Virus genome (UHGV): UHGV-0159305
From: a virus
Direction: 5' to 3' (one strand)
DNA: 34,040 nt
The notes beneath the pieces are model-generated. The model was not told where the DNA came from. It saw only the letters and a program-made list of their open reading frames with translations, and did not search any database. Position numbers and translations under genes: made by a program. Positions 8,541-33,626 of this stretch are shown here, in pieces; the first letter of the stretch is position 1; each line of letters begins with the position of its first letter.

Positions 8541-9080
8541 GTGACTGACACGTCCGCTATCACCGACACCAACCCGGTCGACGCTACCAACGGCAACGAC
8601 ACGCCGGAGAAGTTCGACCTGGCCTCCTGGATCAATGGATTCCAGCCGACCCGGAAGTCCTGCGTCCTGTACGGCCGCACCGACCTGCTCGCCACCATTG
8701 ACAGGCTTGACGCCGAAGCCTCCCTGCCGGGCCTGGATGGTGAGGAGAAGCGACGGATCCTGAACGAGGCGAACGCCACCCTTGATGAGCTGAAGGCGTC
8801 GGGCGTTGAGTTCGTCGTCCAGACGCTGTCCATTCATGCGCAGAAGCGGCTCGTGGATGAGCTGCGCGAGCAGTACGGCGCCGACGGCGAGAAGATCACC
8901 CACGAGATGGAGTGCGCGTTCATTGCTGCGCACATCGTGGAGCCGACCGGCGTCACCGCGGACGACATCGCCCGCCTGTACGACGCATCCCCCGCCCAGG
9001 TGGAGAAGCTGTCCAAGACGATCCGCGCCGTCGACATCTCCGAACCCACCATCACGGCCCCTTTCTCGTCCAAGTCCTGA
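8541..9080 (+). CDS. tail assembly chaperone (G-like)
   Basis: 179-aa ORF between the major tail protein and the tape measure, with a GTG start after GAAGGGGA. It ends just after the slippery heptamer. Confidence 0.7.
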   Translation: MTDTSAITDTNPVDATNGNDTPEKFDLASWINGFQPTRKSCVLYGRTDLLATIDRLDAEASLPGLDGEEKRRILNEANATLDELKASGVEFVVQTLSIHAQKRLVDELREQYGADGEKITHEMECAFIAAHIVEPTGVTADDIARLYDASPAQVEKLSKTIRAVDISEPTITAPFSSKS

Positions 9081-22191: not shown

Positions 22192-23346
22192 TCAGGACCA
22201 GAGGCGCCAGGCGGACGATGTCCCGCCGCCCAGCTCGAACGTCAGCAAGCGCGGGAGAGATGACTCCCCGGACGCGTTCTGGAACCAAGAGCTGCCCGGG
22301 TCCATCGTCGGTGCGCAAATGATCTGCCGGCTGTCACCGACCGTCTGCACGGAGAAGGAATGCCAGTGCCCGTGCAGGAGCACGCGGGCGTCCTGCATGC
22401 CCGCCACGCAGCCGAACGCCTGCCCGCGGAACCAATCCGCGACCCGGCTCTTCGAGCCGGCGGCATGCCCGTGAGTGACGCCCATGACCGTCCCGTCAGC
22501 GGCGCGCACGGTCAGCGACTCCAAGCGCTTCTCTGGCGTCTCGAACCGGATGTGCTCGTAGCCGGGGCGACCCTCGACGATCTGCTGGATGTTGTCGGCG
22601 ATCAGCAGGCCGTAGTCGTCCCCGGGGAACGAGGCCCGGTTGGAGCGGCCGACGCCGGTGCGGACCTGGCAGTGGTTCGATGGCACAGCCACGTAGGTAA
22701 CCTCGGGGGCGGCGGCAGCCAGCGACCGGAGCGCGTCGGCGAGCAGTGCCTGCGCGGTCCGGATCTGATAGGTGAGCGGTAGGTCATTGGTCTGCGCCTG
22801 CGACACCGTATTGCTGAACCCTTCGGTAGAGTCGCCACAGTCAACGAGGATGACCCGCCGGTACTGGCCGGCCGCATAGTCGGCGACCCGAGCGACGGCG
22901 GCACGGACGCGACGGACCGTCTCCTCGGTGCCGCCAGCCCGGTCGGTCTTCCCGATCTGCAGGTCTGACACAACCACCACAAGCGTTGCCTGGCCGGTCG
23001 GCGTTGCGGGCGCCTTGACCGACTCCGCGAAGATCGGCGTCAGGTCCTCGAACCGTTTCGCCTGCACCTCGCCGCGCTCAATAACACCCGGCTTGTACGT
23101 GATCTTCTCGTATGACCCGTCCTGCAGGCGGACGGTCTTCCCTCGGGCCGTGATGGCTTCTACGGGCACGCCGAAGTACTCGTCGACACCTCCTTTGGCG
23201 GCCTCGCTGCGGCGCTTCAGTGCCTTCCTGTGCCTCCTGACGGCCGCCTCCGAGGTACCGAACTCGTCGGCGATCCCCTGGTTGGTGCGCCGCTGATGCT
23301 GTGGCAGGGCGTCGTTCTCGAGGATTGCCTCGTCAAGGGGAGTCAC
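22192..23346 (-). CDS. calcineurin-like metallophosphoesterase with N-terminal sigma-region-4-like HTH
   Basis: The ORF-track ORF 22192..23574 was trimmed to the GTG at 23346. RBS GAAGGAGGT lies 6 nt upstream, and the start overlaps the NrdH-like gene's stop by GTGA. MPE motifs are VVVSDLQIG, VDCGDSTEGF, VPSNHCQ, THGHAAG and LLHGHWH. The first ~45 aa carry an HTH (QRRTNQGIADEFGTSEAAVRRHRKAL). Confidence 0.6.
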   Translation of the reverse strand: MTPLDEAILENDALPQHQRRTNQGIADEFGTSEAAVRRHRKALKRRSEAAKGGVDEYFGVPVEAITARGKTVRLQDGSYEKITYKPGVIERGEVQAKRFEDLTPIFAESVKAPATPTGQATLVVVVSDLQIGKTDRAGGTEETVRRVRAAVARVADYAAGQYRRVILVDCGDSTEGFSNTVSQAQTNDLPLTYQIRTAQALLADALRSLAAAAPEVTYVAVPSNHCQVRTGVGRSNRASFPGDDYGLLIADNIQQIVEGRPGYEHIRFETPEKRLESLTVRAADGTVMGVTHGHAAGSKSRVADWFRGQAFGCVAGMQDARVLLHGHWHSFSVQTVGDSRQIICAPTMDPGSSWFQNASGESSLPRLLTFELGGGTSSAWRLWS

Positions 23347-23621
23347 TCGCCGACCTCCTTCTTGTAGTTGTTCACCCACGTGCGGAGCTTGAACATGTTG
23401 AACCCGGCCCAGTGGGCGAGGGTGTCGCCGGTGTGCTTGTCGACCACATAGCAGACGGGGGCGGCCGTGTAGTTGTTGGCTGTGGCGATCGCCTGGGCCG
23501 TGTCGTCGTCCTTGTACTTCGTTTCCAGGTACGGGGTGTTGTTCTTCGTGAGGTACCGCTTCGAGGACCGGCACTGCTGACAGGACGGCTGGGACGCGAT
23601 CATGATCTCGAATGAAGCCAT
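23343..23621 (-). CDS. nrdH: NrdH-like glutaredoxin / thioredoxin-fold redoxin
   Basis: 92-aa ORF with a CxxC motif (SCQQCRS) near the N-terminus and an overall glutaredoxin-like pattern (..APVCYV..). RBS GAAAGGAA lies 7 nt upstream. Confidence 0.55.
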   Translation of the reverse strand: MASFEIMIASQPSCQQCRSSKRYLTKNNTPYLETKYKDDDTAQAIATANNYTAAPVCYVVDKHTGDTLAHWAGFNMFKLRTWVNNYKKEVGE

Positions 23622-23712
23622 TGACTTGTTCCTTTCGTTTTATAAGGGTTTACGTGTAGTGAGGCGGGTGGGGGGTACTCCCGGCTGGTTTCCCTCCCAC
23701 CCGTTTCCCGCA

Positions 23713-24111
23713 TCAGAACGGGGCGTTGAACGTGTTGGACGTGGTCGGTGCGAGCGCCTGCACACCGCCGGCCTTGTCGGCCTTCTTCACATAGCCGAGG
23801 AGTCTCGGGAACCGCACCTCGAGGGCGACACCGGACTTGGCTCCAGACTCCCAGTTCCGGCGGGTGAGCGTCCCGGTCACGGAGACCTGGTCGCCCTTGT
23901 GGAGGATGTCGCCGAGGTAGTTCTCCCGGTCCCCGAAGAACGTGACGTCGATGTACAGGGGGTCGCCGTCGTCCTCCCACTGCTTCGTGTCGCGGTTCTG
24001 CTGCCGTCGCGTGGCGGCGAGGGCCAGCTTCAGCATGGCGGTGCCGGACTGTGCGTACTTGATCTCCGGGTCCCTGGTGAGCGTCCCCGTAACGGTGATC
24101 TCAGCGGCCAT
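23713..24111 (-). CDS. ssb: single-stranded DNA-binding protein
   Basis: The ORF-track ORF 23713..24150 was trimmed to the ATG at 24111 (MAAEITVTG...), preceded by GAAAGGAA at 5-nt spacing. The OB-fold pattern (TGTLTRDPE...W.D.....Y..V..FG..AEN....L.KGD.V.V.G.L..R.WE...) is present, with an F-ending acidic tail. Confidence 0.8.
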   Translation of the reverse strand: MAAEITVTGTLTRDPEIKYAQSGTAMLKLALAATRRQQNRDTKQWEDDGDPLYIDVTFFGDRENYLGDILHKGDQVSVTGTLTRRNWESGAKSGVALEVRFPRLLGYVKKADKAGGVQALAPTTSNTFNAPF

Positions 24112-24481
24112 TGGTGTTCCTTTCGTTGAACAGGTTGATGATGGTGACAAGGTCGGTGACGGTCATGGTGACCCACTGGTCTTCGGGTTTGCCGTTGCCG
24201 TGTCTCTTGTGGATGACGACTCCGGCTGCCCCTCCGATGTTGCCGGCTTCAGTATGGGCTTCCCTGGTCCACTTTGGCAAGTCCATCCGGGTAACGTTTT
24301 TGCATTCGATGGCGATGCGTTTACCCGCGAGGTGGACGCCGGCGATGTCGCCAGAGTCACGCGCCCCGGTTTTGACTTGCCGGTCGACGTGGAGGCCGTA
24401 CAGCCGGTCGTTGAGGTGGTCGGCGATGAGCCGCTCGAACCGGGAGCCGGCCGCTTTCGCGGACTTCAGGTTGCGTCCCAT
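24101..24481 (-). CDS. PD-(D/E)xK nuclease, Holliday-junction-resolvase-like (Hjc/RecU-like)
   Basis: 126-aa ORF with the motif E...D(SGDIAGV)...IAIECK, typical of restriction-endonuclease-fold resolvases. It lies in a recombination module with SSB and RecT. Confidence 0.5.
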   Translation of the reverse strand: MGRNLKSAKAAGSRFERLIADHLNDRLYGLHVDRQVKTGARDSGDIAGVHLAGKRIAIECKNVTRMDLPKWTREAHTEAGNIGGAAGVVIHKRHGNGKPEDQWVTMTVTDLVTIINLFNERNTNGR

Positions 24482-24843
24482 GCTTCACACAGCTCCTTCT
24501 CGACTTGGTCGTAGATGGCGGCCAGTTGAGTCTGCAGGTACTCGCGCATCTGGATGGTGTCTTCCTGCCTGGCGGTCAGGTAGGTGACAGCGTCGGCGAA
24601 GTGCGCCTGCAGGCTGTCGAGGCCGGTCTGCCAGGAGTCGTGGGCGGCGATGTTGTCGACGTGCCTGCGCGCGTACCAGCGGGCCTTCGCCATGTCTTCT
24701 CCGTACGTGGCGCCGTCCTTGACGCCGGCGCGGAGCGCGTACTTCAAGACGTTCCCGATCAGGAATGTTTCCCTTTCAGTCAGGTAGATGACCTCGACGG
24801 GCCACTTCGTGTAGTGGTCGGGGTGGTTCACGTTGTCGCTCAT
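24466..24843 (-). CDS. DUF3310-family phage protein
   Basis: 125-aa ORF with the N-terminal motif VNHPDHYTKW, characteristic of DUF3310. It overlaps the dUTPase stop by ATGA. Confidence 0.5.
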   Translation of the reverse strand: MSDNVNHPDHYTKWPVEVIYLTERETFLIGNVLKYALRAGVKDGATYGEDMAKARWYARRHVDNIAAHDSWQTGLDSLQAHFADAVTYLTARQEDTIQMREYLQTQLAAIYDQVEKELCEAWDAT

Positions 24844-25514
24844 GAGATCACCGCCATGGGAGTGCCGGTGGTGTCAGCCCGATACTGGTCCCACCCTCCG
24901 GCGTGACCGGTCTTGACGGTCCTGATGACGGACAGGCCGTCCGCCTGTTCGTATCCGATGCCGCCGCCGGCGAGGACGGCGATGGGGGTGTCGTTGCCGA
25001 AGCGGAAAGCCGCGTCCTGCAGCTGTCCCATGAGGCGACCGATTGTGAGGGTGCCGGTCTCCTGGGTGGCGTAGTCGCGGGCTGTAGCACCGCTGCCGGT
25101 GGATCCGAAGCCTCCCGTGCCGCGGTCGGTGTCGTCCTGGACGGCGCCCTTGACAACTTCGATGGCGGGCAGCTTGTGGATGATCAGCTGGCAGATGCGC
25201 TCCCTGGCGGCGACCAGCACCGGCTCCGCGAGGACGGCAACGAGGACCTTCAGGTTGCCTCGGTAGCCGGAGTCAATGACGCCGGCACCGTGCGGAATGA
25301 CTAGCCCCTTCGCGCCGGCCGAGGAACGCAGGACCAGTTCCCCGTAGTAGCCGTCGGGGATGGCGACCCGGATGCCGAGGTCGATCGTGTACACGGCGCC
25401 ACGGCGGACAAGGCAAGTCTGCCCTTCGGGGACGTACAGGTCCAGACCCGCGTCCGTGTCGTGTGCCCTGGTCGGGTCCTGCACGTTCATTGTCTTCTGG
25501 ACGGTGAGCTTCAT
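24840..25514 (-). CDS. dut: dUTPase with ~80-aa C-terminal extension
   Basis: The ORF-track ORF 24840..25535 was trimmed to the ATG at 25514, with GGAAGGAA 5 nt upstream and an ATGA overlap with the upstream gene. dUTPase motifs DAGLDLY, GVIDSGYRG and RGTGGFGSTG are present. About 80 aa follow motif V. Confidence 0.8.
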   Translation of the reverse strand: MKLTVQKTMNVQDPTRAHDTDAGLDLYVPEGQTCLVRRGAVYTIDLGIRVAIPDGYYGELVLRSSAGAKGLVIPHGAGVIDSGYRGNLKVLVAVLAEPVLVAARERICQLIIHKLPAIEVVKGAVQDDTDRGTGGFGSTGSGATARDYATQETGTLTIGRLMGQLQDAAFRFGNDTPIAVLAGGGIGYEQADGLSVIRTVKTGHAGGWDQYRADTTGTPMAVIS

Positions 25515-25879
25515 GAGTGTTCCTTCCTGCTCCATGGGGACCGGTCTCTGCCCCTGGTCAAATCATGCGGCTCGGCGTGGTATTTGTCAATGTCGCCTTC
25601 GTCCCAGGCGAGCGGGGAGTGGGCGCCGGCGGCGACGGCGGTCTCGTGCGCCACCTGCGACCCGTAGTTCACGGGAGCGAGATTGCACTGGTTACGGGAC
25701 CATGCGCACGCGATGAGGAGCCTGTCTTCTTCGGGCACGTACTCGCCGGCCCGGCCTTTCTGGATCGACTTGAGTTTCACTCCGGCCATGTCGGCGATCC
25801 GCTGCTCGGAGTGGCCGATCCACATGAGTGACAGGATCCGCCGCTGCACTCCGATCGGGGTGATGGTACGGAGTTTCAC
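25511..25879 (-). CDS. HTH DNA-binding protein (sigma-70 region-4-like)
   Basis: The ORF-track ORF 25511..25987 overlaps RecT. It was trimmed to the GTG at 25879, which overlaps the RecT stop by GTGA. The segment VQRRILSLMWIGHSEQRIADMAGVKLKSIQKGR resembles the sigma region-4 HTH. The start assignment is uncertain. Confidence 0.4.
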   Translation of the reverse strand: MKLRTITPIGVQRRILSLMWIGHSEQRIADMAGVKLKSIQKGRAGEYVPEEDRLLIACAWSRNQCNLAPVNYGSQVAHETAVAAGAHSPLAWDEGDIDKYHAEPHDLTRGRDRSPWSRKEHS

Positions 25880-26565
25880 TGCTCCCCCTGCGGCTCCGGG
25901 TTGACTCCTGCCTCCCACTTGTCGATGACGGCGGACAGGGAGTCGGGGTCGTCCATGCTGGCGCCGGCGGCCTGCGCCTGCTGCCACACCTCGTTGGCGT
26001 CCCGGCCGGTCTCGTGGCAGTAGTCCATGAGGATGGTGCGGGTCATGTCCCGCTGCGTGTGGTCCTGTGCGGGCTTCTGCGGGGCGTTCTGTGCGGGCGT
26101 GGACTCCAGTTCCTCGGGCGTGTATACGGTGCCCGCAAGGGCGTCAGACGCGCCCTGACGGCACACCTCGGTGATGGCCCTAGCGCGGAGCATCTGCCTC
26201 GGGTACTGCTGCCATGGTCCGCGGCTTCCCCACAGGCCAGCGGCCTGCGCCTTGCTCTTGTCCCAGGTGACGGTGAACTCGTAGTCGGTGTCGTCGGCGC
26301 GGATCAGGGTGGCGGTCACGGAGTCGCCGTCCTCGCGGAGGCGCAGCTTGTGTCCGGCGCGGCGGACTACGGCGCCCATCAGGTCCGCGGACATCGTCAT
26401 CTTGCCGCGAGCCACGACCATCGACTGCATCACCTGCGTGTACGGGACGCCCAGCGCGTCGCCGATGTCCATGGCCCACACAATGTCAGCGGGCTTGCCC
26501 CGGTACTCGGCGGGGATCAGTGAGGACTGGGCGACGATCTTCGCGTGCTCGATGCGGTCTGTCAT
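25876..26565 (-). CDS. recT: RecT-family ssDNA annealing protein
   Basis: The ORF-track ORF 25876..26631 was trimmed to the ATG at 26565, with GAAAGGAA 7 nt upstream and an ATGA overlap with the upstream gene. The N-terminus shows the RecT pattern (AQSSLIPAEYRGKPADIVWAMDIGDALGVPYTQVMQSM..VV.GK). Confidence 0.7.
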   Translation of the reverse strand: MTDRIEHAKIVAQSSLIPAEYRGKPADIVWAMDIGDALGVPYTQVMQSMVVARGKMTMSADLMGAVVRRAGHKLRLREDGDSVTATLIRADDTDYEFTVTWDKSKAQAAGLWGSRGPWQQYPRQMLRARAITEVCRQGASDALAGTVYTPEELESTPAQNAPQKPAQDHTQRDMTRTILMDYCHETGRDANEVWQQAQAAGASMDDPDSLSAVIDKWEAGVNPEPQGEQ

Positions 26566-26864
26566 TGAGGTGTTCCTTTCGTTATTGTGCCGAGAAGTTG
26601 GCTGGCTACGTCCGCGGGGTGGGCGTCGCATTGGTATGGCATATCGACGGTTGAGCGGCCGGCGTACATGGTGACTCCGGCCCGCCCTACATGGACGGTC
26701 ATGAGGTCTCGGTCACCCCAGTAAATGTACAGGGTTGCGGCCTCACTGTCAACTAGGGGCTCTTCGACGAGATAGTCGGGGCCGGGGTGGTCGCGGAGGC
26801 AGACGTCGGCGATGACCTTCGCCATGGCGATCCGGTCCGCGACACCGGCGTGACGGCCGATCAT
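26562..26864 (-). CDS. hypothetical protein
   Basis: 100-aa ORF coupled to its neighbours by ATGA overlaps at both ends. Confidence 0.45.
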   Translation of the reverse strand: MIGRHAGVADRIAMAKVIADVCLRDHPGPDYLVEEPLVDSEAATLYIYWGDRDLMTVHVGRAGVTMYAGRSTVDMPYQCDAHPADVASQLLGTITKGTPQ

Positions 26865-27145
26865 GACCGCCCCTCGCGGGCGTCATTGAGGGCCTCGCGG
26901 ATCGCGTTGTAGATGGCGTCCTTGGTGCCGTTCGGGTCGCACGCGTAGCGGCTGCCACCGGCGTCGAGGGTGTACAGACCGTCCTCGTCTACGCCGGCGA
27001 CCATGTTGCCTCGCTCAGTGCGGGCCTCGATGTACGGGGACCCGTAAGTGGTGCGCCGGAACGCGGCGTACTCGCCCTGGCCGAGGTGGTTGCGGATCGC
27101 CTCGAGGAGGGGCATGAGAAGGCGGGCCTGGTACAGAGGTGACAT
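26861..27145 (-). CDS. hypothetical protein
   Basis: 94-aa ORF with RBS GAAAGGAA 6 nt upstream of the ATG at 27145. Confidence 0.45.
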   Translation of the reverse strand: MSPLYQARLLMPLLEAIRNHLGQGEYAAFRRTTYGSPYIEARTERGNMVAGVDEDGLYTLDAGGSRYACDPNGTKDAIYNAIREALNDAREGRS

Positions 27146-27324
27146 TGGTGGTTCCTTTCAGCTGTGGCGGATGTTGATTGTCTGGATGCGCCCGGTGGCC
27201 GGGTCGGTGTAGGAGACGTGCTTCCAGTCGGCCATCTCAGCTCGTTCGACGCGGCGCCTGTACCTGGCGGCTGCGGCCTTCGCCGACTCGGACCGATTCT
27301 TCATTGCGGTGTTCTGTGGGATTC

Positions 27325-27615
27325 TCATGGCAGTGGTAGGTTTCTCAAAATGTTTTCCGCGCCGGCTTCGGCGTTCTTGTATTCAAATACCGGGGCCTGC
27401 GGGAGCGGCTTATTGGACGAGGCGACAACGATATTGAGGTCATTGTTGATGACCGCTACGCCGCGGCCTGGAATCACGATTGCGAACTTCTGGACATTCC
27501 CCATCGCGGACATCACGGTGACCGGCTTGGCCTCGGCGGGGAATCCGCGGCGACCGATCTCCTTCGCGATGTCGTTGGCCATGGACCAGGGGTCCTTCTT
27601 CTTGTGCCAGAGCAT
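27325..27615 (-). CDS. hypothetical protein (96 aa; MLWHKKKDPWSMANDIAKEIGRRGFPAEAKPVTVMSAMGNVQKFAIVIPG...)
   Basis: This is the real C-terminal third of the spurious-looking ORF 27325..27993. It starts at the ATG at 27615, overlapping the upstream stop (TGATG), with RBS GAGGAG 5 nt upstream. Confidence 0.4.
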   Translation of the reverse strand: MLWHKKKDPWSMANDIAKEIGRRGFPAEAKPVTVMSAMGNVQKFAIVIPGRGVAVINNDLNIVVASSNKPLPQAPVFEYKNAEAGAENILRNLPLP

Positions 27616-27908
27616 CAGTTCTCCTCGAGGGAGAGGAAGCCTCCAACGATTCGGCCGGAGTCCTTGAACGCGATCGGGTAGGAGACGTGGGCGCCGAGCT
27701 TCGACACGTACACGATGCGGTTGTGGTGGACGGCGACCTTCGCGGTGCAAGTGGTGCTGCCATTCTCGGCGATGGCGACCACGGCGGCGCCCGGGTAGCC
27801 GGCCCGGCCGACCTCGGTGGCGACAGCGCCGTAGCCGATCGTGTTCTCGCGGACCCACTTGGCGATGAGGGTCGCGGTGTCGTTCTGGGCGGTGGCTGAC
27901 AGGTACAT
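27615..27908 (-). CDS. hypothetical protein
   Basis: 97-aa ORF with RBS GGAAGGAA 6 nt upstream. Its amino-acid composition is plausible, unlike the overlapping ORFs in the other two frames. Confidence 0.45.
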   Translation of the reverse strand: MYLSATAQNDTATLIAKWVRENTIGYGAVATEVGRAGYPGAAVVAIAENGSTTCTAKVAVHHNRIVYVSKLGAHVSYPIAFKDSGRIVGGFLSLEEN

Positions 27909-27952
27909 AGGGTGTTCCTTCCTGGGGCTGTAGGAGCGTTTCTGAGGGCTGT

Positions 27953-28213
27953 TCAGCGGGTGGCTGTCGCCTGGTACCGGGGCTGGGCTGCAAGGGCCTC
28001 AGCGTGGCGGAGAGTGGCCTTCCTGCGGTTGCTGGACCGGGTGGCCTTGATGGCGACGGGCAGTCCGATGATCAGGGCCGGGACGGTAGCCGGGCCAACC
28101 CCGCCGGCGAGGAGGCCGGCGACCGCGCCGAGCACGACGACGATCGAGATGGTGGCGACCCAGGTGATCAGGGTGGTGGCTGCCTTGCTGGGGAGCTGGG
28201 TGGCGGCGTTCAT
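27953..28213 (-). CDS. small membrane protein (2 predicted transmembrane helices)
   Basis: The ORF-track ORF 27953..28273 was trimmed to the ATG at 28213 (MNAATQLPSK...), with AAGGAGGAA 4 nt upstream. It is the first gene of the leftward operon. Confidence 0.5.
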   Translation of the reverse strand: MNAATQLPSKAATTLITWVATISIVVVLGAVAGLLAGGVGPATVPALIIGLPVAIKATRSSNRRKATLRHAEALAAQPRYQATATR

Positions 28214-28636
28214 TTGGTTCCTCCTTGGTTGACCTGATGGGATCAATGTACGGCGTGTCGACACACCGGTCAACCCATGTCGCCGTGACGTTGGTCACCG
28301 TGTAGGGAGGTGGGTAGGGGTATCAAAATGAGCCGACCCACCCGGCTCAAAATGAGCCCCAAACCTTATCTAAGAAGATAAACACCCCCCTACCCCCCAC
28401 GACGCGGGTCGGGGGCGCATCCCAGGCCCGACACCCGCCGGCGCCGGCGGCGGACAGCTGTGGACGAGGCACCGCCCCGCACGGGCGGCACCTGCTACTG
28501 TTGACCCGTTGGTTGACAGCTGGCCGGGTTTTCGTTGTGTTCCTACCGGCCAGCCGGGGCCCGGGTTGAGCCACGAAGCTCCCCGGGCCCCCACCAACAG
28601 GCCAACAGGAACACAGCACAGGACAACGGAGAAGAC
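28214..28636. promoter_or_regulatory. divergent control region between the leftward early operon and the rightward replication operon
   Basis: A leftward promoter candidate has -35 TTGACC (28273..28268), a 17-nt spacer and -10 TACATT (28250..28245). The 10-bp perfect palindrome GTGTCGACAC (28255..28264) lies in its spacer. Further elements are the palindrome GTGACgttgGTCAC (28285..28298), direct repeats TCAAAATGAGCC at 28323 and 28347, the AT-rich palindrome TTATCTaagaAGATAA (28366..28381), and tandem TTGACc/TTGACA at 28501 and 28513. Confidence 0.55.
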
Positions 28637-29440
28637 ATGGAGTACTACAACACTCAAGTCATCGGGGCCATCAACATCCGCCCCTACTGGAGAACGCGCG
28701 ACCTCACCGGCGCGGACATCGCCACCCTCACCGCACTCTGCACCTGGTGGAACTGCGAGCGCATCTACCCCTCCAAAGACGCCATCCAGGCCCGCTCCGG
28801 CCAGTCGCGTGCGGCGACCACCCGAGCCCTCGCCCGCCTCACCGAACTCGGCATCATCGAAACCCGCCACACCGCAGGCAACACCAACGAATACGCCATC
28901 CACCTCGACGCTCTCCTCAACCACGACGGCCTCGTAGCAGCAGGCGCCAGCAGCCACGACCGCCTCACCGAACGGCCCCACACCTACAAGCCGCTCACCC
29001 CCGTCGCAGACCGAGTCACCGAAGACGACATCGCACGTGCGCGAGCCAGGCACGACAAGGCTGCAGCCAAGAAGCAGGCGCAGAAAGCGCAGGAAGCCCA
29101 GGAGCGAGCCGAATTCAACAAGGTGTACCCGGGCACCAAGGCGACCATCAGAGACTGGCAGAAAGCCCGACAGCACGCCGAGGCACGGGAAATCACCGAC
29201 GGTGCCAAAGCGTACGCAGACCAGTGCCGCCGCAGGGAAACCCCAACCCGCTACATCCGCACCGCACGCCGCTGGCTCGAAGACCACGACTGGGAGAACT
29301 ACCAACCCACCCAGCCAGCCGACACTACCGACCGACTCGGCAACCCCCACATCAACGACGCCGACCTCGTCAACGCCGAAGCCACCCCTGAACTCATGGC
29401 CAACATCGCAGCCATGTGGGACAACGCAACCAACAACTGA
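28637..29440 (+). CDS. replication initiator / helicase-loader-like protein with winged-helix DNA-binding domain
   Basis: The ORF-track ORF 28535..29440 was trimmed to the ATG at 28637. An N-terminal wHTH-like segment (IATLTALCTWWNCERIYPSKDAIQARSGQSRAATTRALARLTELGIIE) is followed by a charged coiled region. It lies immediately upstream of DnaB. Confidence 0.5.
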   Translation: MEYYNTQVIGAINIRPYWRTRDLTGADIATLTALCTWWNCERIYPSKDAIQARSGQSRAATTRALARLTELGIIETRHTAGNTNEYAIHLDALLNHDGLVAAGASSHDRLTERPHTYKPLTPVADRVTEDDIARARARHDKAAAKKQAQKAQEAQERAEFNKVYPGTKATIRDWQKARQHAEAREITDGAKAYADQCRRRETPTRYIRTARRWLEDHDWENYQPTQPADTTDRLGNPHINDADLVNAEATPELMANIAAMWDNATNN

Positions 29441-29461
29441 CACACCAGACAGGGAACACAA

Positions 29462-30715
29462 ATGGAAACCACTACCCTCGAACAGTGCCTCATCGGCTCA
29501 GCCCTCGCCGGCAACGAAGCGCAAACCGACACCACCTGGGCCACCACCCCAGACATGATCGCCAACACTAGGTACGCCACCATCTGGGGAATCATCCGCG
29601 ACCACTGGGCAATGGGCAGAATCCCCACCCCGGCGTCAGTCCTCGCGGAGGTGCGACGCCCGGCCACCGGCGAAGACATCCTCGACTGCGTCCACGCCTC
29701 AGTGAACCCCACAGACGCAGACCACTACGCCCGCCTCGTCCAAGAAGCCTCCGCCAAACGGGACGTCCATGACGTACTCACCCGCGCCGAGCAGCTCCTC
29801 CAGGGCGACTCCACCGCCGCCGAGGTCGCCTCATGGGCGCAGTCTCACATCGGATCCGCCGCCCCCGACGGTGACACCGTCTCCATGCCCTCCCTTGTCG
29901 ACCAGTGGTACACGGCGAGGAAGGCTACCGGTGTCCGCACACCATGGACCGCAATCAACGACATCATCGGCATGCACCGGGACGGCGGCCTCCACGTCAT
30001 CGGTGCCCGACCCGCAGTGGGCAAGACCCTGTACGGCTTGTACCTCGCGTCCTGCGCCGCACGCAATGACAGGCACGTCCTCTACGTATCCATGGAAATG
30101 CCCGCCCGTGAACTCCTGCCTCGACTGCTGTCCCAGGCCACCGGCATCGCACTGAAGTACACGACCAGGGAGGAGCAGGCACCCGCCGACGTCGCTGACA
30201 TCCTCAACCGAGCAGCAGCCCAAGTCGCCGCCATGCCGATCCACATCAGCGACAAGGCCGGCATGTCCGTCGAACAGGTCGCAGCATCGGCCCGCACGCT
30301 CCACCACAAGAAGAAGCTCGGCGCGGTCGTCATCGACCACATGCAGCTCCTCGCCCCGTCCCGCGGTGTGCCCGGCTCCTCGCTCCGAGAGGTAGTCACC
30401 TACCAATCCAGGGCGCTCAAGGAACTGGCCCTCGAACTGGACGTCCCAGTGTTCGCCCTGTCGCAGCTGTCCCGTGCATCCGAGATGAGAGACGACCTCG
30501 CCCCGAAGCTCGCCGACCTCCGCGAGTCAGGCAGCATCGAGCAGGACGCGGACACTGTCACCCTCCTCAGCCTGCCTGTCCGTAACGGCGTCCCCGACCG
30601 GACGCGACTCGCCGTATCCGTAGCCAAGAACAGGCACGGCGCAACCGGCGACGCGGAACTCATCCGCCAGCCCGCCATGGCCGTGCTCGCAGAACCTACC
30701 CGAGAAGGCCACTGA
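29462..30715 (+). CDS. dnaB: DnaB-family replicative helicase
   Basis: 417-aa ORF with Walker A GARPAVGKT, SMEM, VVIDHMQLL, ALSQLSRASE and LRESGSIEQDAD, matching DnaB motifs H1-H4. Confidence 0.85.
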   Translation: METTTLEQCLIGSALAGNEAQTDTTWATTPDMIANTRYATIWGIIRDHWAMGRIPTPASVLAEVRRPATGEDILDCVHASVNPTDADHYARLVQEASAKRDVHDVLTRAEQLLQGDSTAAEVASWAQSHIGSAAPDGDTVSMPSLVDQWYTARKATGVRTPWTAINDIIGMHRDGGLHVIGARPAVGKTLYGLYLASCAARNDRHVLYVSMEMPARELLPRLLSQATGIALKYTTREEQAPADVADILNRAAAQVAAMPIHISDKAGMSVEQVAASARTLHHKKKLGAVVIDHMQLLAPSRGVPGSSLREVVTYQSRALKELALELDVPVFALSQLSRASEMRDDLAPKLADLRESGSIEQDADTVTLLSLPVRNGVPDRTRLAVSVAKNRHGATGDAELIRQPAMAVLAEPTREGH

Positions 30716-30732
30716 CAGCCACGCAGACAAGC

Positions 30733-30769
30733 GAACGCCCCCCGCCCGGTACTCGGGTAGGGGGCGTTC
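30733..30769 (+). terminator. stem-loop terminator after dnaB (GAACGCCCCC...GGGGGCGTTC, ~15 bp pairing)
   Basis: Read directly from the sequence, 18 nt after the dnaB stop. Confidence 0.6.
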
Positions 30770-30863
30770 CCGTTGGGCCGGCAGCGGCGCTCACACAGCC
30801 TCCGTGTACACAGGGGGGACGAGTACCATAAGAACACCCGCACCAACCAATAGGAGACCGCAC

Positions 30864-31076
30864 ATGACCCGCACTCTCTACATAGTCGCCGCCGTCGCAG
30901 GCGCCCTCTCCGCCATCCACGCCGCACTCCTCTGGTATGCAGGCCTCACCACCGGGGAACTCGACATCTCCACCAGCCTCCTCTGGACGGTCGTCTCCGC
31001 CGTCTGCCTCGCATCCCTCCGCCCCATCCGCTGGGCCAGGAAGCACGGCAACCACCCAGGCTTCCACCGCCGCTAA
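30864..31076 (+). CDS. small membrane protein (2 transmembrane helices)
   Basis: The ORF-track ORF 30804..31076 was trimmed to the ATG at 30864 (MTRTLYIVAAVAGALSAIHAALLWYAGL...), with RBS GGAGA 7 nt upstream. Confidence 0.45.
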   Translation: MTRTLYIVAAVAGALSAIHAALLWYAGLTTGELDISTSLLWTVVSAVCLASLRPIRWARKHGNHPGFHRR

Positions 31077-31083
31077 CCACCAA

Positions 31084-31118
31084 GGATCCCCCGACACCAA
31101 CACGGTGCCGGGGGATCC
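31084..31118 (+). terminator. stem-loop (10-bp stem GGATCCCCCG / CGGGGGATCC, 15-nt loop)
   Basis: Read directly from the sequence, 8 nt after the stop of 30864..31076. Confidence 0.5.
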
Positions 31119-31234
31119 GTCCACCTCCATGCAATCACCGCACCACCCAACAACCGACAGGGACCTTGTACCCAGGTAGACCGGGTGGCCCATTCCCGCG
31201 CCCGCGCCCCGTTGGGGCTATGACACCAAACCCA

Positions 31235-31430
31235 TAGATATCTAGGTAGTAGACAGTAGGCGCCTGTGGATATGTGGACAACCCCGCCTACCGTTGCAAC
31301 CCCAACGCCCACCACCCCACAACCACCTGTGGATAACTCGAGGGGCGCAGTGGATTACCTGTATGCACAACCACTTACCCACAGGTTATCCACAACCAAT
31401 CCACAAGGCTTCCCACCCGGTTACCCACAT
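31235..31430. promoter_or_regulatory. origin-like DnaA-box / iteron cluster, preceded by the AT-rich palindrome TAGATATCTA (31235..31244)
   Basis: Eight 9-mers fall within 165 bp, on both strands. Two are rc TTATCCACA (31328..31336; perfect) and + TTATCCACA (31386..31394; perfect). One is rc TTGTCCACA (31273..31281; the actinobacterial consensus). The 8/9 matches are rc ATATCCACA at 31265 and + TTACCCACA at 31375 and 31421. The 7/9 matches lie at ~31350 and ~31397. Several are extended to the 11-mer TTATCCACAGG. Confidence 0.5.
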
Positions 31431-31567
31431 GACCCAACACACAGGGGAGGGCTAAAGTCCCAGCCCGGGGTCAACCTTCAGACACCAGCAGCCCCCCAAC
31501 CACCCCCCACCCACCAAGGACCTAGACACACCACCCCACCACCCCACCGCCCCACTACCATAGGCGC

Positions 31568-32020
31568 ATGACATGGACCACCAGCGACCGACGGCAACGA
31601 CTCCCAAAAAACTGGAACCAAATCCGAAAACAAATACTGCAAACAACAAACGGAAAATGTGCAGGCCTCGCCGACCCCGGGTGGGGTACCGGGTACTGGG
31701 AGGATGGCCCCGCGGGCACCCCCTATGCCGGCCCCCGGTGGCACCACACCGACTGCACAACACTCGCCACAGATGTGGACCACATCCAACGAGGAGATTT
31801 AAACAGGTCAGGCAACCTCCAACCCCTGTGCCACGCCTGCCATGCCGCCAAGACCACCGCCGAGGTCCGTGCAATACACGCACACAAGACACGCATGCGA
31901 ACACGACCGACACCACAACATCCTTGCGACAAACAACAAAACAAAGCGAAACGAAACGAAAAGCAAAAACGAAACAAAACAAGCGAAACGCAAACCAAAA
32001 ACCGCGAACGCGAAATCTGA
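31568..32020 (+). CDS. HNH endonuclease (C-terminal ~45 aa is low-complexity translation of an A-rich tract)
   Basis: The HNH motif CAG...DVDHIQRGDLNRSGNLQPLCHACHAAKT is present. The reading frame runs on through the (GAAAC)n tract, giving a KQQNKAKRNEKQKRNK.. tail. Confidence 0.7.
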   Translation: MTWTTSDRRQRLPKNWNQIRKQILQTTNGKCAGLADPGWGTGYWEDGPAGTPYAGPRWHHTDCTTLATDVDHIQRGDLNRSGNLQPLCHACHAAKTTAEVRAIHAHKTRMRTRPTPQHPCDKQQNKAKRNEKQKRNKTSETQTKNREREI

Positions 32021-32050
32021 AACGAAACGAAAATCCGCTGCGAAAAAACG
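31928..32050 (+). repeat. purine/A-rich low-complexity tract with two copies of GAAACGAAACGAAAA (31948..31962 and 32019..32033) and related GAAAC units
   Basis: Read directly from the sequence. Roughly 60% A in a ~70% GC genome. It spans the HNH stop codon. Confidence 0.6.
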
Positions 32051-32070
32051 ACCGGCACCCCTGGCGGTGA

Positions 32071-32104
32071 CTCCCCCGCCCCCACACACGAAAGACCGGG
32101 GGAG
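32071..32104 (+). terminator. stem-loop (8-bp stem CTCCCCCG / CGGGGGAG, 18-nt loop)
   Basis: Read directly from the sequence, downstream of the HNH stop and the A-rich tract. Confidence 0.4.
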
Positions 32105-32228
32105 ATAGCAACTCCGCGGCTGGATGCTCCTTGCCACACGTTTTCCCCGTGACGACCGCCACTCGACCGGCCCGTTACCCTGGAACCAACCACCCCGACC
32201 CGACGGGGTGCAACAGACAGGAGGGCAG

Positions 32229-33626
32229 ATGTCAGCATCACCCGCAACCGCCGCAGCCCAGATGGAGTACTGGGCCACCTGCGGCCCCGGAAAGCCGCAG
32301 GGAGGTGACTACAGCGTCGGCTACTCGCAGCCCGACCGGTGGATGGCGTACGAACGGTCCACGGACCTCGGCTGGCTCACCGCGGACGCCAACATGGACT
32401 GCTCCGCCGGTGTCGCCGCGGCCTGGAACTTCGCTTTCCATGCGGACGGCGAGCCCTGGGACTCGTCCGTTATGTTCCCCAGGGACACGTACACCGGCAA
32501 CATCCGCGGCTACGCCACCTCCAGGGGCTTCGAGGATGTCCACTGGGACGACAGCAGCCTCTACCCCGACGGCGGCCTTCAGGTCGGCGACCTGATCCTC
32601 TCTGAGGCGGCCTCTGGCGGCGCCGGCCACGTCGCCATGGTCACCAAGAACGGCCTGTCCGAAGCTTGGATCGCCGAGGACGGGTCAATCGACGGGTACA
32701 TCGGCGACCAGACCGGCTCTGAGTGCCGGTGCGTGTCCTATGAGGGGCACCTGTACACGCAGACGGCCCGGTGGACGCACTGTCTCCGCTATCTCGGCGG
32801 CACCGCGGCGCCTGTTCCGCCGTCGCAGGAGCAGTCACGCGCCTCGCACGACGGGTACGAGCTGTCCTACGTGCAGCAGGCTGTGCTCCGCGCCGCTGAC
32901 AACGTCGGATGCCCCTGGTGGGCTGCGCTCGCGGCCCTGTGGATGGAGACCGGCGAGTATGGCGCGAACATCTTCGGCCATGACGCCGGCGGCGCCTACT
33001 GCGGCGGCGGCGAAGTCACCGAAGCAAAGTTCCGGGACTTCTACGCACAGATCAGCGCTGGGGCCGCGTCCAACGGCGTCGGCCCGCTGCAGGTCACGTA
33101 CCCCGGCTACTTCTTCAACGACCCCGACCGGGCTTGGTGGGACCCTGAGAAGTCCGCCGAGGTCGGCTGTGGCATCATCCGGGACCTCATTAACGCGGAA
33201 GGCGACTCGTACGAGGACCTGAAGCGTGTCGGATCCCGCTACAATTCGGGTAGCGCGTACGGCGCCTACGAGGCGTACGGCGAACCCTTCAGCGACCGGT
33301 GCAGGTCGTGGTACAACTACGGGCGCCCCAACGGCGCAGGACAGGAGGCATGGGAAATGGCTGAAGGCGTTGACCTTCTCAGGGAGATCAGGGATCTGTT
33401 CAGGTCCGGGCAGGCTGGCGACCACTTCGCCGGCGACATGAACTGGTACGCGAAGGCGACCTACGAGGAGACCAAGGCGATCCACGCTGCGGTTGACAAG
33501 GTCCTCGACGCGTTGACCCCCGGCCAGGAGGGCGTCAAGTCTGCGGGGGCGATCTACGGTGCTGTCAGCGACATTCGCGCCGCCGTGAAGCCCGCCGACG
33601 TTGAGCGGCCCGACGCTGCGAAGTGA
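32229..33626 (+). CDS. endolysin (N-terminal NlpC/P60- or CHAP-like Cys/His peptidase, central lysozyme-like transglycosylase-type domain, C-terminal region)
   Basis: The ORF-track ORF 32124..33626 was trimmed to the ATG at 32229, with GGAGGG 3 nt upstream. It has a Cys-His pair (MDCSAGVAAAW ... GHVAMV) and an SLT-like motif (LWMETGEYGANIFGHDAGGAY ... GPLQVTYPGYF). A holin gene lies downstream. Confidence 0.7.
   Translation: MSASPATAAAQMEYWATCGPGKPQGGDYSVGYSQPDRWMAYERSTDLGWLTADANMDCSAGVAAAWNFAFHADGEPWDSSVMFPRDTYTGNIRGYATSRGFEDVHWDDSSLYPDGGLQVGDLILSEAASGGAGHVAMVTKNGLSEAWIAEDGSIDGYIGDQTGSECRCVSYEGHLYTQTARWTHCLRYLGGTAAPVPPSQEQSRASHDGYELSYVQQAVLRAADNVGCPWWAALAALWMETGEYGANIFGHDAGGAYCGGGEVTEAKFRDFYAQISAGAASNGVGPLQVTYPGYFFNDPDRAWWDPEKSAEVGCGIIRDLINAEGDSYEDLKRVGSRYNSGSAYGAYEAYGEPFSDRCRSWYNYGRPNGAGQEAWEMAEGVDLLREIRDLFRSGQAGDHFAGDMNWYAKATYEETKAIHAAVDKVLDALTPGQEGVKSAGAIYGAVSDIRAAVKPADVERPDAAK

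Follow-up and report, generated by a model that had tools for sequence, protein, structure and literature searches.

A candidate oriC-like cluster of DnaA boxes in a 34-kb phage genome

The locus and its DnaA-box cluster

The window analyzed here is UHGV virus genome UHGV-0159305 at its full length of 34,040 bp, a complete phage genome that is circularly permuted, its last and first 700 bp being contiguous in four related contigs. The element of interest is a cluster of DnaA boxes with its adjoining motifs at 31206–31429 (~220 bp), situated in 450 bp of non-coding DNA that extends from a GC-rich hairpin to an HNH endonuclease gene. Upstream lies a rightward block (28637–31076) that encodes, in order, a 267-amino-acid protein (hereafter, the initiator; 28637–29440, plus strand), a DnaB-type replicative helicase (29462–30715, plus strand; DnaB_C, 1.3e-58; phrog_19, 1.1e-71), and a 90-amino-acid protein (30804–31076) judged by eye to span the membrane. 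Downstream, the HNH gene (31568–32020) opens the packaging operon and is followed by the gene of an endolysin-like-domain protein (32124–33626) and then by the small terminase (132–491), large terminase (491–2233), portal, head, and tail genes on the plus strand. An earlier interpretation of the same DNA (hereafter, the sequence-only reading) had placed the cluster at a replication/lysis junction; the replication side holds, and the other side is packaging.

The left part of the cluster begins with two overlapping minus-strand boxes, B1 (ATATCCACA, 31265–31273) and B2 (TTGTCCACA, 31273–31281; TTATCCACA in most relatives), which form a 17-bp double box with an offset of 8 bp (31265–31281; TGTGGATAT/GTGGACAA). 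B1 adjoins a run of TAG triplets and is invariant in a sister clade of the phage family. Further right on the same strand are B3 (31328–31336), a perfect TTATCCACA that is also perfect in 12 of 21 relatives and has one or two changes in the others, and B4 (TAATCCACT, 31349–31357), which is weak (two mismatches) in every relative, yet kept as such. A weak plus-strand box, CACCCCACA (31313–31321; CTATCCACA or xxxTCCACA in relatives), faces B3. The CCACA core of this box is kept in both clades, as are CTGTGGATAACT at B3 and the GTGGA core of B4. A central element, CCTGTATGCACAACCAC (31358–31374), separates this left set from the right array (31375–31429), in which five co-oriented plus-strand boxes start at 31375, 31386, 31397, 31409, and 31421 (spacing 11, 11, 12, and 12 bp) and face the left set. 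Their sequences are, in order, TTACCCACA, TTATCCACA, CAATCCACA (31397–31405, two mismatches), CTTCCCACC (31409–31417), and TTACCCACA. The sites at 31313–31321 and 31409–31417 are degenerate here but are good boxes in related phages, where the latter is TTACCCACA or ATATCCACA.

Every 9-mer named in the sequence-only reading was found at the position it had been given, and the enrichment that it anticipated is evident. The window contains eight matches to TTATCCACA with at most one mismatch, compared with a mean of 1.73 in 100 dinucleotide-preserving shuffles of the 34-kb window, none of which reached eight. Six of the eight matches fall within 165 bp (31265–31429), a stretch that also holds two boxes with two mismatches, and the cluster is thus denser than expected by chance. 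Two details had to be revised: the background is not 70% GC, as the genome has a G+C content of 66% and the box region of ~62%, and the "GG" that extended the 9-mer to an 11-mer pattern carries little information (G in 58–64% of sites, <0.5 bit).

A putative unwinding module beside the boxes

Between B1 and the TAG run lies a GC-only spacer of 5 bp (GCGCC, 31260–31264). The run itself reads TAG-G-TAG-TAG-ACAG-TAG on the plus strand (31243–31259) and TAG-G-TAG-TAG-A-TAG-TAG in relatives, and 36 distinct sequences from the two clades retain it. No other place in the genome has five TAG in 25 nt, the maximum elsewhere being three on the plus strand and two on the minus strand, and none of 300 simulated genomes reached five. 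The run forms the right part of an AT-rich patch (31218–31259, 42 bp, 60% A+T in a 34% A+T genome); the AT-rich palindrome TAGATATCTA (31235–31244) and the "GTAG repeat" reported earlier were both confirmed in it. Only 1.4% of the 20-mers in the genome reach 60% A+T, and 31211–31275 is among its AT-richest 40-mers. An AT-rich element is therefore present beside the boxes, though its A+T content is modest in absolute terms. The patch, in which AGATATCT is conserved in both clades, is a candidate unwinding region.

To the left of the patch is a short GC palindrome, GCCCCGTTGGGGC (31206–31218), found in 20 of 36 distinct family sequences within a block with a pairwise identity of 0.92–0.98. At the equivalent place the sister clade has a different palindrome, GGGGCTTCGCCCC. 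Symmetry, rather than sequence, seems to be kept here, and the palindrome may serve as a clamp or boundary for unwinding. The spacer between the run and the double box shows another type of constraint: its length is fixed (5 bp; 6 bp in one variant) and its sequence is free among the 36 distinct family sequences (GCACC, GGGCC, GTGCC, GGGGC, and others), which is the footprint expected of a spacing element.

This arrangement can be compared with the basal unwinding system of bacterial oriC, which consists of tandem boxes, a GC spacer, DnaA-trios, and an AT-rich region, as at Bacillus subtilis incC, and which has been predicted in Streptomyces coelicolor, Arcanobacterium haemolyticum, and Corynebacterium glutamicum (PMC8287927, PMC6669920, PMC10721633). 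According to the published rule, one or more boxes are followed by a spacer of up to 16 nt (published examples are CCGG, CTCG, and CGCG) and then by at least three consecutive NAN triplets on a defined strand, 3'-GAT-5' being preferred; three triplets are the functional minimum in B. subtilis. The top strand of the phage family is TAGGTAGTAGATAGTAG-GCACC-TGTGGATATGTGGATAA, for comparison with TAGTAGAAGTAATAGTAG-GGCC-TGTGGATTTGTGGATAA on the scaffold strand of B. subtilis (PMC8287927). Written 3' to 5', the family module is AATAGGTG-TATAGGTGT-CCACG-GATGAT..., that of B. subtilis is AATAGGTGT-TTAGGTGT-CCGG-GATGAT..., and the modules predicted for S. coelicolor and A. haemolyticum (Actinomycetaceae) are AATAGGTGC-CATAGGTGT-CCGG-GATGATGATGAC and AATAGGTGT-CAAAGGTGT-CTCG-GATAATGAT..., respectively. 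The phage TAG run thus resembles DnaA-trios (3'-GAT-5') and is on the strand and side expected for such a system.

The likeness to bacterial oriC extends to several features of the arrangement. The double box is co-oriented, its weaker box adjoining the triplets and its consensus box lying farther away from them; its 8-bp offset is that of B. subtilis boxes #7/#6; the GC spacer is 4–5 bp long; the GAT GAT triplets are on the same strand and side, with an AT-richer patch beyond them; and further boxes, in either orientation, lie upstream. The opposed box sets and the 11-bp phasing recall the left and right halves of Escherichia coli oriC. Unlike a chromosomal origin, the phage element is confined to ~220 bp of a ~34-kb phage, has no dnaA or dnaN nearby, contains only two in-register triplets, and is accompanied by the phage's own winged-helix protein and DnaB.

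Conservation within the family and in a sister clade

Searching with the initiator recovered a family of 22 IMG/VR contigs (73–86% amino acid identity; genomes of 33–35.6 kb) and 37 metagenome contigs, and hundreds of variants of the initiator protein were found. The layout recurs in ~20 IMG/VR and ~24 metagenome contigs of this family, and a cluster with the same geometry is present in every contig that reaches the region, with one exception (L017). Box starts are at offsets 0, 8, and 63 for the leftward boxes and at 110, 121, (132), 144, and 156 for the rightward ones. The most divergent member of the family (L020) has five near-perfect tandem boxes.

A logo built from 185 aligned sites gave TTAYCCACA (T.72, T.78, A.90, T/C, C.93, C 1.0, A.99, C 1.0, A.85), with less than 1 bit in the flanks. 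The unit under selection is therefore the 9-mer DnaA box and not a longer iteron. Some positions in the cluster are always strong, for example B2, B3, B5, and B6, and others are always weak yet conserved, for example B4 (TAATYCACT) and B7 (CAAWCCACA). Strong anchor sites mixed with low-affinity ones are a typical feature of oriC.

The sister clade (L151–L153 and L307–L312) has an initiator that is 35–40% identical (37%) to that of the family; in L151–L153, DnaB is 47% identical and the G+C content is 68.5%. Its intergenic region no longer aligns with that of the family except for a few islands. These are AGATATCT, the TAG run, a 5-bp GC spacer, TGTGGATAT-GTGGAxAA, TCCACA...CTGTGGATAACT, the GTGGA core, and the array of five rightward boxes. 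The box starts in this clade have offsets of 0, 8, 63, 110, 154, and 165. The central element at 31358–31374 has a pairwise identity of 0.92–0.96 in the family and cannot be aligned with L151–L153, and it is a candidate site for a clade-specific phage initiator.

The same 9-mer in unrelated phages

At least 120 IMG/VR contigs, spanning all base compositions, contain tandem boxes of the form TTATCCACA-NN-TTATCCACA, and 41 of these have at least five boxes per 300 bp. Among the tandem-box contigs that were compared with the proteins of the window (L027–L150), a relative of the initiator was found in the fetched flanks only in L123, which is a contig of the same family. As the same 9-mer occurs without this initiator, the common factor is a host protein. 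The protein that recognizes TTATCCACA is DnaA, and it is quite probable that host DnaA binds the cluster. A strict search for trios across the other tandem-box viral contigs returned canonical modules in only a few of them, for example in the 95-kb contig L103, where a textbook module (GTAGTAGTAG-GGGC-TGTGGATAATGTGGATAA) is present. Some of the IMG/VR tandem-box contigs (L031–L150, e.g., L103, L111, L121, and L093/L055) may be mis-binned bacterial DNA.

Box arrays were also found in two cultured, lytic, T7-like phages, in each case as eight co-oriented boxes in an unannotated spacer, mostly with the perfect TTATCCACA. In Klebsiella phage vB_KpP_FBKp16 (MW394389.1, ~4.1–4.3 kb; L276, 1511–1670) they are unevenly spaced by 11–33 bp, and in Escherichia phage P483 (KP090453.1, ~37.25–37.38 kb; L277, 1429–1554) they are phased by 11–12 bp. 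The T7-like group is not known to need DnaA for replication. In T5, the injection-stop (first-step-transfer) region is non-coding and holds conserved, precisely arranged sets of ~8 DnaA boxes, which were called reminiscent of oriC, lie far from the mapped origins, and have been proposed to act in injection arrest and not in replication (bioRxiv 10.1101/866236). They differ from the boxes studied here in being arranged as pairs 3 bp apart in large inverted repeats of the terminal repeat and in having no trio module.

The presence of a box cluster is in itself no proof of an origin, given that those of T5 and T7-like phages probably do not serve as origins; for the same reason, a site that binds DnaA without being an origin is the main rival explanation. 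Such a site could be a sink that stalls host initiation, a switch for the HNH/terminase/structural operon, or a membrane-DnaA tether as proposed for T5. The position of the cluster, exactly between a terminator and the first late-operon gene 140 bp downstream, fits this explanation, and box arrays adjoin HNH/terminase-like genes (by eye) in the viral contigs L111 and L121 as well. Cellular precedents exist: E. coli datA is a DnaA-titrating box cluster outside oriC, and clusters in B. subtilis are reportedly chromosomal and DnaA-titrating. Like these, the phage cluster has dense high- and low-affinity boxes able to soak up DnaA, and titration could either accompany another function of the cluster or be its actual role. 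However, datA-like clusters are not known to have an unwinding module or to fire, whereas in the phage region nothing is better conserved than the trio-like run and the AT patch. A sink or an operator needs neither an AT patch nor a module of TAG trios, GC spacer, and double box at fixed spacing; no TAG-trio module was found beside the arrays of vB_KpP_FBKp16 and P483; and a promoter/terminator scan of 30700–32100 returned nothing usable and no promoter-like site. We consider it unlikely, on balance, that the element is a DnaA-binding site without origin function.

The phage initiator and the iteron alternative

As a second alternative, the phage's own winged-helix initiator may read the 9-mers as its iterons; their resemblance to DnaA boxes would then be fortuitous and host DnaA uninvolved. 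The initiator matches a PHROG annotated "replication initiation protein" (phrog_270, 2.8e-16), with a weak match to HTH_36, and no motif near the replication genes other than the boxes is strongly iterated. Several box positions tolerate variants such as TTACCCACA, and Microbacterium phage Appa, whose replication genes are similarly ordered but whose initiator is unrelated in sequence, has no such cluster.

Iterons would be expected to change with their initiator and to form units of ~17–22 bp with information throughout. The 9-mers, which equal the DnaA consensus exactly, are instead kept unchanged in the clade with a 37%-identical initiator, and the units are 11–12 bp long with 9 informative bp, at which the information ends. 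Between the two clades, the predicted recognition helix differs at most positions (SRAATTRALARL versus GRRTFCESLRRL) and the boxes do not, which makes the initiator an unlikely reader of the 9-mer. Phages that lack this protein share the 9-mer and its phasing, which also argues against iterons, and a winged-helix binder gives no reason for a DnaA-trio-like run. The iteron alternative, which had been left open by the sequence-only reading, is weakened by the sister clade and the 9-bp limit of the information, and we rate it as quite unlikely.

In the AlphaFold model of the initiator, only residues 25–88 have a predicted local distance difference test (pLDDT) score of 70–86; these form an N-terminal winged helix, which is followed by a long helix and a conserved, helical C-terminal part. 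Searches of folds, PDB sequences, and NCBIfam with the initiator returned only winged helices of the MarR/Fur type, and no DnaA-domain-IV-like fold or family. The C-terminal half may or may not have a DnaD-like or a DnaA-like fold. No relatives of the initiator were found in bacteria among 185,579 species genomes, and an exhaustive profile search showed that its family is narrow, with one neighboring cluster at 39% identity. The part of the protein best conserved between the clades is not the winged helix; it is a C-terminal stretch, AEFNxxYP...W..AR.HA...AKAYA.QC.RR.T.RYI..AR.WL..H.WE (P0122), that matched no known family and could be a contact surface for DnaB or DnaA. A repeat of ~20 nt (CCTCGCCCGCCTCACCGAAC) is present in three copies inside the initiator gene (28717–28973), 111 and 126 nt apart; as both spacings are multiples of three, the copies may be within-protein repeats rather than DNA sites.

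Origins with an element-encoded initiator offer two further comparisons. At the plasmid and phage-plasmid origins of P1 (oriR), pSC101, F, and RK2, such an initiator is combined with host DnaA boxes that flank an element-specific site, as may be the case here; Rep iterons of ~19–22 bp are predominant there, with only one to five DnaA boxes. The phage element, by contrast, has no iterated motif besides the DnaA boxes, and a trio-like module accompanies them. Lambda-type origins have O-protein iterons (18–19-mers) in or beside the initiator gene, which precedes the gene of a helicase or helicase-loader. The phage shares the initiator-helicase order with a putative origin close by, but its repeats are the host DnaA 9-mer and stay unchanged as the initiator changes.

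Genomic surroundings

The left edge of the non-coding region is the GC-rich hairpin GGATCCCCCGACACC/GGTGCCGGGGGATCC (31084–31118, plus strand), an inverted repeat with 15-nt arms that are 93% complementary. It is kept in relatives, with compensating arm changes in the alignment, and probably terminates the operon of the initiator, DnaB, and the 90-amino-acid protein. A hidden open reading frame at 31266–31571 was considered and rejected: it matched no family, and indels in relatives are not multiples of three, for which reason the region is taken as non-coding. An Rfam scan of 30700–32100 found no family.

To the right of the boxes, a tract almost free of G and T on the plus strand (31478–31556; C47, A22, G7, and T3 of 79 nt), with G-runs on the other strand, continues into the HNH gene. 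Many independent assemblies of the family end or start in this tract or in a second C-rich tract at ~32070–32090, several of them with Nextera or TruSeq adapter sequence. These contig ends may mark a physical genome end or, as we prefer to read them, sequencing failure on a G-rich template. A 14-mer scan for genome ends gave mostly chance matches, and the idea that the cluster marks a cos end was dropped as the contig ends scatter over the two tracts. HNH genes typically accompany cos-type terminases. That the repeats are cosB-like recognition sites of the small terminase near a packaging cut site is very improbable. In its favor, ~10 contigs of the family have an end within the C-rich tract 80–120 bp right of the last box, some with adapter, and the HNH gene is immediately downstream. 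Against it, the second hot spot points to sequencing or assembly difficulty and not to a unique physical end, the contig ends are spread over ~40 nt, a distance of 2.6 kb separates the site from the terminase genes, and unrelated phages are unlikely to share a terminase site equal to the DnaA consensus.

Elsewhere in the genome, a leftward block (22192–28273) encodes an exonuclease, RusA, DUF3310, a dUTPase, and RecT. The phage has DnaB, SSB, and recombination genes, and its 58 candidate open reading frames gave no sign of a polymerase, primase, integrase, or DnaA-type DNA-binding domain. The spacer between the divergent early operons (28274–28534) contains the exact 12-mer TCAAAATGAGCC twice (at 28323 and 28347, 24 bp apart) and the palindrome TTATCTAAGAAGATAA, which are probably operator sites for some regulator.

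Neither nucleotides 28300–33000 nor the initiator protein had a match among 50,697 cultured phage records. Protein matches to cultured phages are distant only (TerL, 45% identity to Microbacterium phage Footloose; DnaB, ~35%). The endolysin-like protein is 50% identical to an Actinomyces oris locus and 53% identical to an "Atopobium" contig from a metagenome-assembled genome, a weak hint at the host, which is probably an actinobacterium from human samples.

Proposed function and implications

Taken together, the restriction of the motif to the 9-mer, the layout retained in the sister clade, the same boxes in unrelated phages, and the partial match to the basal unwinding module support the proposal of the sequence-only reading that this is an origin-like, DnaA-dependent site that would recruit host DnaA. 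We moderately favor the interpretation that 31206–31429 is a compact oriC-like origin that depends on DnaA. The sequences themselves show the architecture, how unusual it is statistically, and its conservation in two phage clades; binding of DnaA, melting at the TAG run and AT patch, a role of the phage protein as adaptor, and activity as an origin are all inferred.

In the mechanism we propose, host DnaA would occupy ~10 boxes, namely the left set of B1/B2, B3, and the weak B4 together with the rightward array of five, the strong boxes being occupied and the weak ones filled cooperatively by DnaA. ATP-DnaA would then extend from the double box over the 5-bp GC spacer onto the TAG (3'-GAT-5') top strand and open 31218–31259. 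The phage winged-helix initiator, maybe positioned by the central element, would deliver the phage DnaB to the bubble, and host primase and polymerase, needed because the phage encodes neither, would complete the replisome.

Several observations weigh against an origin of this type, in addition to the probably non-replicative clusters of T5 and T7-like phages. The phage has its own "replication initiation protein", for which no separate binding site was identified. Beside the spacer, only two triplets keep the register (GAT GAT; GAT GAC in the window); single-base shifts then give three more GAT, and by hand reading no frame has three consecutive NAN triplets. In this series (GAT GAT N GAT GAT G GAT), the position of the interruptions is conserved and their identity is not. 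Boxes often have C instead of T at position 4 (TTACCCACA), which the stringent E. coli consensus, TT(A/T)TNCACA, does not allow. The turning points of the GC skew are at ~9 kb and 28.4 kb and not at the cluster; the skew tracks gene blocks here, and we judged it uninformative on origin position. The host genus can be named as Actinomyces only tentatively. L017 (IMGVR_UViG_3300009963_000020, 8560–8640) lacks the whole module: the DNA just beyond its terminator hairpin is joined at a CCCAC microhomology to box four of the right array, either by a genuine deletion or by misassembly.

That plasmid and P1-type origins carry DnaA boxes is already known, as are the box sets of T5. In the literature, we found no description of a trio-type module with opposed phased arrays in a lytic phage with its own initiator and helicase. 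A broader proposal, possible though doubtful at present, is that the initiator is a DnaD/DciA-like adaptor that loads DnaB in widespread, uncultured, apparently lytic actinobacterial phages of human samples with a miniature chromosomal-type origin recognized and melted by host DnaA, and that the box arrays of many other phages, the T7-like phages of E. coli and Klebsiella among them, reflect a general and little-studied strategy of using host DnaA.

If the interpretation as a DnaA-dependent origin is true, it raises the question of what role a phage initiator has where the origin reads like oriC, and it would draw attention to the unexplained DnaA-box arrays of cultured phages, in which experiments are easy. 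The 220-bp element would be a portable minimal origin, suited to tests of basal unwinding off the chromosome and to vectors for Actinomyces-like bacteria. Phage replication would be tied to the DnaA-ATP level of the host, and hence to its growth state, in abundant human-associated actinobacterial phages, and multiplying phage genomes with ~10 boxes each could drain DnaA from the host chromosome.

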